DNA of 8,520 nt from a virus (IMGVR_UViG_2534681654_000003:1-8520); one strand, 5' to 3'. Shown: positions 6,219-7,600, numbered from the stretch's first letter. A program made the numbers and translations. The notes: generated from the sequence alone by a model not told the origin.

Positions 6219-6232
6219 ATCAGGAGGTCTAT

Positions 6233-6616
6233 ATGACACGCAGAACTCAGTTCAAAGGCAATTCACGTTCTCGTCGTCGTGAGCGTTTAAAGGCAAAGGC
6301 ATTAGCTAACGGCGTACTGGCCCGCGAAGAAGCAATAAGTTCAGAAGTATTACACCGCCCTACTCTAAGCAGAGCGCAGATTCAGGCTAAAGGTACTCAC
6401 GAAACGCCTGAGCGCATAGAAGACGCTAAGCCAATTAAGTTCATGGCACAGGACGTGATCTGGCAACAGAAAGAATACAGACGCAATCTGGAGCGAGCGG
6501 CCATTGTGTACGCGAATGAGTTTGGACATAAGCAACCAGAAACTGGTGTATGTCTTCCAAACGTAGCCATTTACGCGGCAGGCTACCGGAAATCAAAACA
6601 ACTGACGGCGAGGTGA
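6233..6616 (+). CDS. N: N-type transcription antiterminator, P22 gene 24-like
   Basis: 127 aa with an arginine-rich N-terminus (RRTQFKGNSRSRRRERLKAKA). The C-terminus LPNVAIYAAGYRKSKQLTAR matches P22 N ...LPGVALYAAGHRKSKQITAR (recalled). Strong SD; cognate boxB upstream. Confidence 0.85.
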   Translation: MTRRTQFKGNSRSRRRERLKAKALANGVLAREEAISSEVLHRPTLSRAQIQAKGTHETPERIEDAKPIKFMAQDVIWQQKEYRRNLERAAIVYANEFGHKQPETGVCLPNVAIYAAGYRKSKQLTAR

Positions 6617-6674
6617 CTTGTGTTGGTCGCCAGAAAATGAAATTAGGCAGCAAACCACTTATTTGAGGTGAGAT

Positions 6675-7145
6675 ATGACAAAATCATGGAGCGTACCTTT
6701 TCCTGAATCAGAAACTGAACATGATGGAATGCCTGTTTTCTGGAGATTCCAGGCGACAGTTGAAGAAGATGGGATAAAAATATTCGCACTTCAATATATA
6801 GCTTTTCATCAGACAGAGCATTATGCATGGTTGGTTCCTGCGCATTGGATTGTTAATTTTAAACCAGCACCAAATCAGTGGTTACAGGAATGGAAACAAA
6901 GGAGAAATAGATATGCAATTAAGAAAGTAGCAAAAAATGCAGAAAGATCTTTTGCATTCCCAACGAAGAAACTTGCCATTGAAAGTTTATTGCGCCGGAA
7001 GAAATACCATTTAATGAGAATCAAACAAGATTTGGCTGTTGTATCAACTCTTGTTGATGGTATGAAGAATATTGATACATCAACACCAGATATTGAATAT
7101 AACTTTGGACACAACCAAGAAACAGAAAATTGGGTATTTTATTAG
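6675..7145 (+). CDS. Hypothetical protein, 156 aa, AT-rich moron between N and the cIII region (lambda ral/sieB position)
   Basis: SD GAGGTGAG upstream of the ATG. Visibly more AT-rich than the flanking genes. Trp-rich and apparently soluble, with no transmembrane-like hydrophobic stretch. No recognisable motif. Confidence 0.65.
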   Translation: MTKSWSVPFPESETEHDGMPVFWRFQATVEEDGIKIFALQYIAFHQTEHYAWLVPAHWIVNFKPAPNQWLQEWKQRRNRYAIKKVAKNAERSFAFPTKKLAIESLLRRKKYHLMRIKQDLAVVSTLVDGMKNIDTSTPDIEYNFGHNQETENWVFY

Positions 7146-7247
7146 TACGAATAAGCACTGTGTATTCATTCCAACGAGTGAATACACGGAGCAATGTCGC
7201 TCGTAACTAAACAGGAGCCGACTTGTTCTGATTATTGGAAATCTTCT

Positions 7248-7276
7248 TTGCCCTCCAGTGTGAGGGCAATTTTTTT
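7248..7276 (+). terminator. Rho-independent terminator between the 156-aa moron and the next gene
   Basis: Perfect 8-bp stem ttgccctc (7248-7255) / gagggcaa (7262-7269), 6-nt loop, then 7 T (7270-7276). Confidence 0.7.
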
Positions 7277-7288
7277 GACGGAGGATAT

Positions 7289-7600
7289 ATGAAATTACGT
7301 GTCTGGCATATCCCGCAAGTACCTATGAAGCCGTTCATTGTAGAAGTGGCAAGTGTTGAAGAGGGTGTTCGTCTGATGGACGCACTGGCTGATTATGACG
7401 CCTTTCAGTATGACAACAACATCAAGCCTGATTACTGCAATGCTAACGGCCTTGAGATGTGGGATGAGAGCCTTACCGATGAAGATTTATCAGAGATGGG
7501 GCTTACTGATCGCTGGGTGGATTGGTACAGCGAATGCCAATGTTACGACGACCCACGTAAATATCTCGAAAGCCTGAAAGAAGAAACATCAGCCGCCTAA
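7289..7600 (+). CDS. Hypothetical early-left operon protein, 103 aa (about the position of lambda ea10; identity unverified)
   Basis: ATG at 7289 preceded by SD GGAGGA. The TTG start at 7235 used by the ORF track would put the terminator 7248-7276 inside the coding region, so the shorter start is preferred. Confidence 0.6.
   Translation: MKLRVWHIPQVPMKPFIVEVASVEEGVRLMDALADYDAFQYDNNIKPDYCNANGLEMWDESLTDEDLSEMGLTDRWVDWYSECQCYDDPRKYLESLKEETSAA

Follow-up and report, generated by a model that had tools for sequence, protein, structure and literature searches.

In phage lambda the gene for Ral, a small, optional, early lytic protein that alleviates restriction, lies on the PL strand between the antiterminator gene N and the PreS/tL2a element, and a further terminator, tL1, is present between N and ral. 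An alternative occupant of the same interval in lambda and P22 is sieB (superinfection exclusion B), but this is encoded on the opposite strand, and its product is a membrane protein that is expressed from the prophage. Nucleotide-modification proteins of the Nmad5 family (PF18757) are also found as single-gene cargos at this address, between N and PreS and on the PL strand.

The right side of this interval in lambda, the ral-ea10 region, encodes the small RNA LPR1, since renamed PreS (Silverman et al., bioRxiv 10.1101/2024.10.31.621285; Mol Cell 2025). Lambda PreS is an Hfq-dependent sRNA of ~88 nt that is processed to ~68 nt, and its 3′ end is the early-left terminator tL2a (10.1101/2024.10.31.621285). 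Its target is the dnaN leader, with which it pairs; it increases DnaN levels and aids the replication of phage DNA, and it is conserved in 2537 genomes (10.1101/2024.10.31.621285). Optional phage genes with deviant composition may be morons, a term that we use in the HK97/HK022 sense (Juhala et al. 2000, as cited in PMC4104026) and which, in that cited form, also implies an own promoter, an own terminator, and expression from the repressed prophage.

Here, we analyse an AT-rich 156-codon gene that occupies the interval after N in an Stx phage, and which has been on record since the genomes of 933W and HK97 were determined, with no study of it found. We compare its location with those of lambda and other prophages, re-assign the RNA structures that follow it, and weigh what its product may do at the start of lytic growth.

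Results

A compositionally deviant gene directly after N

The window – the whole 8,520-nt stretch of viral DNA analysed (IMGVR_UViG_2534681654_000003:1-8520) – covers the immunity and early-left region of a Stx phage that resembles H-19B (97% identity over 1.5 kb), and is oriented such that PL reads rightward on the + strand (Table 1). The PL-like promoter is flanked by an inverted repeat visible in the sequence (ACCAATAGTTC/GAACTATTGGT) and is located upstream of nutL, as in the 933W annotation; we infer its promoter function, and transcription of N and the 156-aa open reading frame (ORF) presumably starts here. N is annotated as such in both H-19B and 933W, and forms the conserved upstream flank of the region considered here. 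In the first-pass annotation of the window the ORF had been placed between N and a lambda-like cIII-kil-gam-bet block, and it does indeed follow N directly, but the P22 gp17-like gene ahead of cIII had been overlooked. This latter gene occupies a second, independent variable slot (7276-7590), which contains gp17 here and Ea10/DUF2528 in 933W, and is empty in HK97.

Table 1. Features of the window, listed in map order
Feature	Coordinates	Strand	Basis or position
DnaB-like helicase, O-like replication protein, cII, cro		-	window gene order
cI, then DUF3024 gene and 177-aa ORF in the rexAB position			between cro and the PL-like promoter
PL-like promoter, TTGATA-17-CATTAT	5955..5983	+	promoter scan; between operator-like palindromes
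nutL	6001..6067	+	99.4% identical to the 933W stretch with annotated nutL
Antiterminator N, H-19B/933W type	6233..6616	+	PF25694, E 2e-15; PHROG 271
Linker with Shine-Dalgarno	6617..6674	+	58 nt between the end of N and the ORF
156-aa accessory gene	6675..7145	+	ATG start; homology, purifying selection, induced mRNA, detected protein
Conserved hairpin, perfect 14-bp core 7158-7189	7155..7192	+	fold dG -21.7 kcal/mol, z -5.1
PreS (LPR1) homologue, ~88 nt	7189..7276	+	lambda identity; 5′ end approximate
Intrinsic terminator tL2a	stem 7248-7269 (8 bp, GC-rich), T-run 7270-7276	+	terminator scan, folding
P22 gp17-like gene	7289..7600	+	PF17420, E 7e-56
cIII with Rfam thermoregulator, then kil, gam			after the gp17-like gene

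Most of what had been noted about the ORF itself holds up, including its extent on the + strand from an ATG start, its strong Shine-Dalgarno (a GAGGT within 6665-6671, 5 nt ahead of the ATG), its AT-richness, its abundance of tryptophan (7 of 156 residues, 4.5%), and the lack of an obvious transmembrane segment. The GC content of the ORF is 0.357 and its GC3 0.268, whereas the twelve other genes of the window range from 0.42 to 0.51 and from 0.35 to 0.55, respectively. When GC was computed along the whole window, just 0.7% of all 471-nt segments were equally AT-rich and the global minimum was located inside the ORF (at 6698), making this the strongest compositional break present. Kyte-Doolittle hydropathy of the product reaches a maximal 19-residue mean of only 0.56, and reveals no transmembrane segment. 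The protein is basic, with a pI of 9.07 overall and of 10.9 in its central region.

Comparison with a 64%-identical homologue in Salmonella phage NX263 gives a dN of 0.24 and a pS of 0.79 (synonymous sites being saturated), with differences by codon position of 40/30/80 in the + frame. This pattern indicates that the 156-aa frame is under purifying selection and that its coding capacity is real. Three minus-strand antisense ORFs (61, 79 and 57 aa) were dismissed as by-products of AT-rich sequence, because the codon-position pattern of the substitutions fits the + frame.

The gene is widespread in enterobacterial prophages and matches no named family

The 156-aa protein is 100% identical to 933W L0079, phi24B vb_24B_11c, Min27 ORF20 and the EDL933_RS06705 product (WP_000167595.1), and 99% identical to HK97 gp45. 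In 933W, HK97, phi24B and Min27 it is the same gene in the same place, directly after N, and is annotated in every case as 'hypothetical protein'; the H-19B record contains the ORF, but it is unannotated. An identical ORF sequence is present on >1000 contigs, and the full cassette is found in 560 of 5426 complete E. coli genomes (~10%). Besides many Stx phages, the gene is carried by HK97 and further non-Stx phages, and close homologues (55-99% identity) are restricted to phages and prophages of Enterobacterales.

The protein matches PHROG 1636 over its full length (E 2.7e-112, residues 1-156 against profile positions 1-156 of 156), a family labelled 'unknown function'. The first-pass annotation had recognised no motif, and likewise Pfam, NCBIfam and PDB sequence searches with the ORF product returned no match (Pfam E<=0.1), nor did a PDB sequence search with an 82-sequence profile. 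Among the defence-protein HMMs of PADLOC-DB v2 the sole match was Cas1_II, at a non-significant, chance-level score (E 0.018, 12 bits). Literature searches by locus tag and accession for the 933W L0079/HK97 gp45 family found nothing, and those for 'HK97 gp45' returned only unrelated gp45 proteins. A preprint describing a phage accessory-gene screen makes no mention of HK97, 933W or Stx phages, and a paper on Chi-rich lambdoid phages does not cover the gene.

An exchangeable cargo in a gene-sized slot

Direct alignment of the flanks with lambda, together with a census of what other prophages carry between them, confirms the initial placement of the gene at the ral/sieB position. In loci with alternative cargos, homology to the window runs to the end of N (6616), and in some through the linker to 6677, is then lost, and is regained at 7155 to continue to 7275. 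Among 85 fetched loci the homology breakpoints cluster at 6610-6660 and 7270-7290, and there is further variation outside of them, with at least four unrelated N types upstream of the slot, and Ea10, gp17, cIII or other genes downstream.

The cargos of the slot include Ral alone, Ral with a 140-aa ORF, Ral with SieB, SieB alone, the Nmad5 protein, an 83-aa ORF and a 98-aa ORF, as well as two-gene arrangements in which a 74-aa or a 107-aa ORF precedes the 156-aa gene. All of the other small cargos have the PHROGs label 'unknown function', and in profile comparisons the Nmad5 protein and the 140-aa ORF are unrelated to the 156-aa protein. The cassette flanks are present in 2294 of the 5426 E. 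coli genomes, four times the number that carry the ORF (560), and most lambdoid prophages with the same flanks contain an unrelated cargo in its stead. The gene is therefore present or absent at one and the same site across relatives.

The linker is common to several different cargos. In two prophage loci (L004 and L006) homology to the window continues through 6677, and in L006, which contains the 107-aa ORF together with the 156-aa gene, the 19-nt linker from Shine-Dalgarno to ATG (6659-6677) is duplicated, with a copy ahead of each cargo gene. Because of this duplication, the linker is the probable recombination joint. By these alignments, the 156-aa gene occupies, as an exchangeable cargo, a slot the size of a gene in the PL operon of lambdoid phages, and the breakpoints define the borders of this slot as the 3′ end of N with the Shine-Dalgarno linker on the left, and the PreS sRNA/tL2a element on the right.

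The downstream hairpins belong to PreS/tL2a

The first-pass annotation reported hairpins at 7160-7187 and 7248-7276 as following the gene. Both exist, but they are not the gene's own terminator, because the spacer that contains them matches the PreS/tL2a region of lambda. This 121-nt spacer (7155-7275) is ~99% identical to the lambda ral-ea10 intergenic region, and in an alignment of the window, lambda, 933W and a sieB-type prophage the columns from 7155 to 7268 are near-invariant; lambda differs by 2 nt, at the last stem pair and the U-tract of the terminator. The 14-bp hairpin, directly upstream of the PreS interval, is identical in lambda, is kept with sieB and 83-aa cargos, and is missing in one prophage locus (L005), which retains exactly 7189-7275 of the spacer.

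The PreS interval (~7189-7276) was set by counting 88 nt back from the U-tract, and Rfam 15 contains no model for the PreS/LPR1 sRNA. In 933W the PreS/tL2a element directly precedes ea10, and in lambda it has the same position upstream of the ea10/gp17 slot, as well as the same GC-rich stem and poly-U 3′ end. By its identity with lambda, the hairpin region is a PreS/tL2a homologue, and a part of the phage backbone whatever the cargo. Since the element forms the right border of the slot, PreS constitutes the 3′ UTR of any cargo that occupies it, namely of the 156-aa gene here and of ral in lambda. The EHEC prophage sRNAs HnrS, AgvB/AsxR and Pas were considered as candidates for the spacer and rejected, as all of them map to the late region.

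Expression with N upon prophage induction

A consensus scan of the + strand from 5984 to 6675 identified no sigma-70-like site – a weak test in itself, with which the expression data agree – and a terminator scan showed no equivalent of tL1 between N and the 156-aa ORF; after PL, no strong intrinsic terminator occurs until that at 7248. We infer that the 156-aa gene is co-transcribed with N, upstream of any strong intrinsic terminator in the operon.

Published data for strain EDL933 treated with ciprofloxacin include the gene as EDL933_RS06705, which we confirmed to encode the 156-aa protein and to be located between an Ea10-like gene and N. At 2 h its mRNA is up 66.7-fold, as are those of N and the ea10 homologue (66.7-fold each), and gam is up 83-fold, a single RNA-seq time point that does not separate N-dependent from N-independent expression (PMC11125564 Table S1). 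The protein is itself detected, with increases of 6.2-fold at 3 h and 8.4-fold at 12 h, and on the lysogen side of the same prophage DUF3024 rises by just 2.2-fold, with no differential expression of stk (PMC11125564 Table S1). The gene is silent in the 933W lysogen until SOS induction, and then rises in step with N.

These observations bear on the description of the gene as a moron in the first-pass annotation. As an optional extra gene whose base composition differs from that of its neighbours it resembles a moron in the HK97/HK022 sense, but it lacks the other three of the five features that the cited description gives: no promoter of its own was found, the terminator is tL2a, and instead of being expressed from the repressed prophage it is induced 66.7-fold like N. 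Because no own promoter was found and induction occurs alongside N, the gene is an early lytic accessory gene and not a prophage-expressed moron.

A family of small basic phage proteins with a new predicted fold

Remote-homology searching and structure prediction yielded some 90 uncharacterised relatives and a confident model without a relative in the PDB. Among 1.84 billion representative proteins a profile search identified 87 homologues (E<1e-3) of 125-165 aa, spread over four PHROGs that are all labelled 'unknown function'; the PHROG 1636 HMM also matches 81 of 82 superfamily members. No source supplied a Pfam domain or an informative name for any of the superfamily relatives. Three longer proteins that appeared to be domain fusions (P0065, P0080 and P0094) proved uninformative or spurious.

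An AlphaFold2 run with only 20 close homologues gave a pLDDT of 59.5 and was replaced by one using the 82-sequence superfamily alignment, with a pLDDT of 96.0 and a pTM of 0.83. In the model, a predicted N-terminal three-stranded sheet (residues 19-30, 33-46 and 50-55) is followed by two short helices (57-61 and 66-74), a further strand (83-86) and a long helix of 33 residues (98-130), and the C-terminal tail is ordered. A PDB structure search with it returned no relative, and no likeness was found to OB-fold SSBs, known DNA-binding domains or known inhibitors; the predicted fold is new, and without a solved relative. In a viral structure library, however, 12 uncharacterised phage proteins match the model (E<1e-3, probability 1.0), and these come from unrelated phages infecting Erwinia, Achromobacter, Delftia, Rhizobium, Sinorhizobium, Tenacibaculum and other hosts. 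These include Erwinia phiEa2809, Achromobacter phiAxp-3 and Delftia RG-2014, which we take to be virulent.

The basic character is a property of the family. The 66 distant members have a median pI of 9.0, with 94% of them exceeding 8; median net charges are +5 and +3 in the centre and -3 in the tail, and the last two residues of the tail are aromatic and acidic, in this order. Positions conserved in the family are R24, G33, E46, T47, K75, K83, K84, K87, R92, A101, R108 and K109. There is no catalytic-looking set of invariant residues across these 66 members, and the conserved set looks better suited to structure or ligand binding than to catalysis. The distant relatives reside in early or DNA-metabolism operons without a constant partner gene; in about 4 of 11 such contexts a DNA methyltransferase or Lar is encoded within a few kb, a proportion that has no background rate to be set against.

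Discussion

The 156-aa gene is translated on induction, and is found in roughly a tenth of complete E. coli genomes and in most sequenced Stx1 and Stx2 phages. Our best guess for its function, and a tentative one, is counter-defence by non-enzymatic binding. The product would be an 18.6-kDa soluble non-enzymatic protein with an N-terminal sheet, a very basic centre organised around the 33-residue helix, and an acidic tail ending in an aromatic residue, which at the very start of lytic growth would bind stoichiometrically to a polyanion – nucleic acid, or else an acidic protein of the host or of a defence system – with the outcome that the phage genome is protected or favoured against interference by the host or a competitor. 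It may be a functional analogue, though not a homologue, of the Ral and Nmad5 cargos, because these alternate with it in the slot. The sharing of a slot with Ral, SieB and Nmad5 points circumstantially to such a role, and in several early operons distant relatives lie near DNA methyltransferases or the restriction-alleviation gene lar. A role in the lytic phase would also fit the structural homologues in unrelated, presumably virulent phages. The DNA mimics Ocr and ArdA are strongly acidic, and because the 156-aa protein is basic it is not a mimic of this type; it also lacks a fold match in the PDB.

The protein could instead be a phage-internal nucleic-acid-binding factor that serves early DNA transactions or tunes early expression, with no conflict with a defence system, and we regard this as possible, if on the unlikely side. 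The transactions meant are recombination, the start of replication and the protection of genome ends. Such a factor would fit the basic centre and acidic tail that are conserved family-wide, residence in the PL operon beside gam-bet-exo, erf or Ea10 ('Ssb'), and the presence of distant homologues in operons with RecE, RecT, RdgC, an SF3 helicase or a replication initiator. SSB and T7 gp2.5 have acidic tails with a terminal aromatic residue, of which the tails in this family are reminiscent. However, the gene is evidently dispensable, given that most lambdoid prophages with the same flanks are without it, and an internal factor of this kind sits uneasily with the changing partner genes and with a model that resembles neither OB-fold SSBs nor any known DNA-binding domain.

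A toxin or inhibitor of a housekeeping process, acting Kil-like in host takeover during induction and unrelated to defence systems, is an unlikely reading. It would accord with the early lytic timing, with the apparent nature of the protein as a non-enzymatic binder, and with an operon that in lambdoid phages holds the small host-directed proteins Kil, CIII and Gam, but the protein has no similarity to known inhibitors. The protein is still present at 12 h, and at a higher level than before, which speaks neither for nor against such a role.

We consider it doubtful, and less probable still, that the gene provides superinfection exclusion or abortive infection against other phages in the manner of SieB or Rex, from the prophage or during lytic growth. 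The occupation of the same slot by sieB in lambda and many prophages suggests this role, as does the adjacent gene, which belongs to the P22 gp17 family and has the Pfam label 'superinfection exclusion'. Yet the expression pattern is that of PL rather than that of the genes active in the prophage, the scan found no promoter for the gene alone, the protein is unrelated to SieB and, unlike SieB, has no membrane segment, its best PADLOC match (Cas1_II) is non-significant, and its structural homologues include proteins of phages that are presumably virulent. A SieB-like role in the lysogen in particular is unlikely, because expression is induction-dependent. Finally, a classical lysogenic-conversion gene, expressed from the repressed Stx prophage for the virulence or fitness of its host, would fit the AT-rich and foreign composition, the optional presence and the frequency in Stx phages that are seen here, but this reading is largely refuted by the expression data, with strong induction alongside N instead of constitutive expression, and is made very improbable also by the lack of a detected own promoter, a downstream terminator that is PreS/tL2a, and the occurrence of the gene in HK97 and other non-Stx phages.

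Counter-defence can be extended to a broader reading, in which the protein is the first recognisable member of a widespread, phage-specific, structurally new class of small, basic, non-enzymatic proteins that neutralise host immunity or a nucleic-acid-targeting barrier; we regard this reading as rather unlikely. The members of such a class would be present in both temperate and virulent phages and made at the onset of lytic growth, and their mechanism would differ from DNA mimicry and from Ral-type enhancement of methylation. If this reading were true, the gene would affect which E. coli strains Stx phages productively infect or are induced in. The slot lends itself to the exchange of genes for anti-restriction, exclusion and DNA modification, and a function in conflict between phage and host or between phages, if true, would thus have consequences for how Stx phages spread and for their host range. 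Moreover, with a confident model, no solved relative, and ~90 distant homologues across phage groups, the protein is a tractable target for structure-function studies, and PreS as the 3′ UTR of different cargos should be useful for studies of PreS biogenesis beyond lambda.

In kind, the gene is familiar – an optional early-left accessory gene of the lambdoid ral/sieB region – and the re-assignment of the hairpins behind it to PreS/tL2a rests on published biology, but its protein is outside of the characterised families. It shares with lambda Ral its address, its modest size, its optional nature and its early lytic expression, and differs in length (156 aa here, 66 aa in Ral) and in sequence, there being no similarity (BLASTP E 23). 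It is distinguished from SieB in being soluble, encoded on the PL strand and dependent on induction, and the best BLASTP alignment with SieB has an E of 0.21 over 14 residues. The Nmad5 family protein is like it a single-gene cargo between N and PreS, but the two are unrelated (hhalign probability 0.4%).

Variable cargo between N and PreS

The slot between N and PreS is a small hotspot, in which the early genes are mostly uncharacterised. A prophage of E. coli PEC240 (locus L006, 1492-2604) carries tandem cargos here, a 107-aa gene followed by the 156-aa gene, and the same 19-nt linker from Shine-Dalgarno sequence to ATG, compared with the window at 6659-6677, precedes both. Because a copy of the linker stands before each of the two cargo genes, recombination at this linker is suggested to stack or exchange cargos. 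The slot in some prophages is occupied by an Nmad5-family protein, as in E. coli KSC207 (locus L104, 666-1289), where the 'nucleotide modification' product matches PF18757 (E 6e-71), and other prophage loci encode TolA-like or coiled-coil proteins just past PreS.

Between the cargo and PreS lies a perfect hairpin (see table) that is identical in lambda and is kept alongside the sieB and 83-aa cargos; it is missing from one prophage that retains 7189-7275 only. Possible roles are to signal processing, to mark where PreS begins at its 5′ side, or to stabilise the 3′ end of the cargo mRNA. The second variable slot holds a P22 gp17-like gene (PF17420) in the window, whereas 933W has Ea10/DUF2528 there and HK97 has no gene at all; further downstream, the thermoregulator element overlaps the cIII start.

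Features of the window (coordinates in nucleotides)
Feature	Coordinates	Strand	Remarks
O-like replication protein	1774-2673	-	Region of note ~2100-2300
DUF3024 gene	4354-4695	+	Directly 3′ of cI, rexAB position
177-aa ORF, PHROG 2602	4885-5418	+	Second gene in rexAB position, after the DUF3024 gene
Perfect 14-bp hairpin	7158-7189	+	dG -21.7 kcal/mol, z -5.1; abuts PreS interval on its 5′ side
Second variable slot	7276-7590		From PreS/tL2a to cIII leader; independent of the first slot
Lambda cIII thermoregulator RNA element, Rfam RF01804	7660-7718	+	88.5 bits, E 4e-21

Genes in the rexAB position

In PADLOC, the DUF3024 protein hits PDC-S43, a family of candidate defence proteins (E 5e-42). Ciprofloxacin induction of EDL933 raises expression of its homologue only 2.2-fold, versus 60-110-fold for early lytic genes (PMC11125564), and this weak induction fits a gene that the prophage expresses, so that the DUF3024 gene is a plausible candidate for a prophage-encoded defence gene. 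After the 177-aa ORF, a strong GC-rich hairpin lies between T/A runs at 5417-5440 (AAAGCCCCG...CGGGGCTTT); it looks like a bidirectional terminator between the cI-side operon and the PL region.

Repeats within the O-like gene

Two 13-residue units are repeated in tandem in the O-like replication protein. Since GC falls locally to 0.39 at the same place, the repeats are probably gene-embedded origin iterons, like those that lie inside lambda O.
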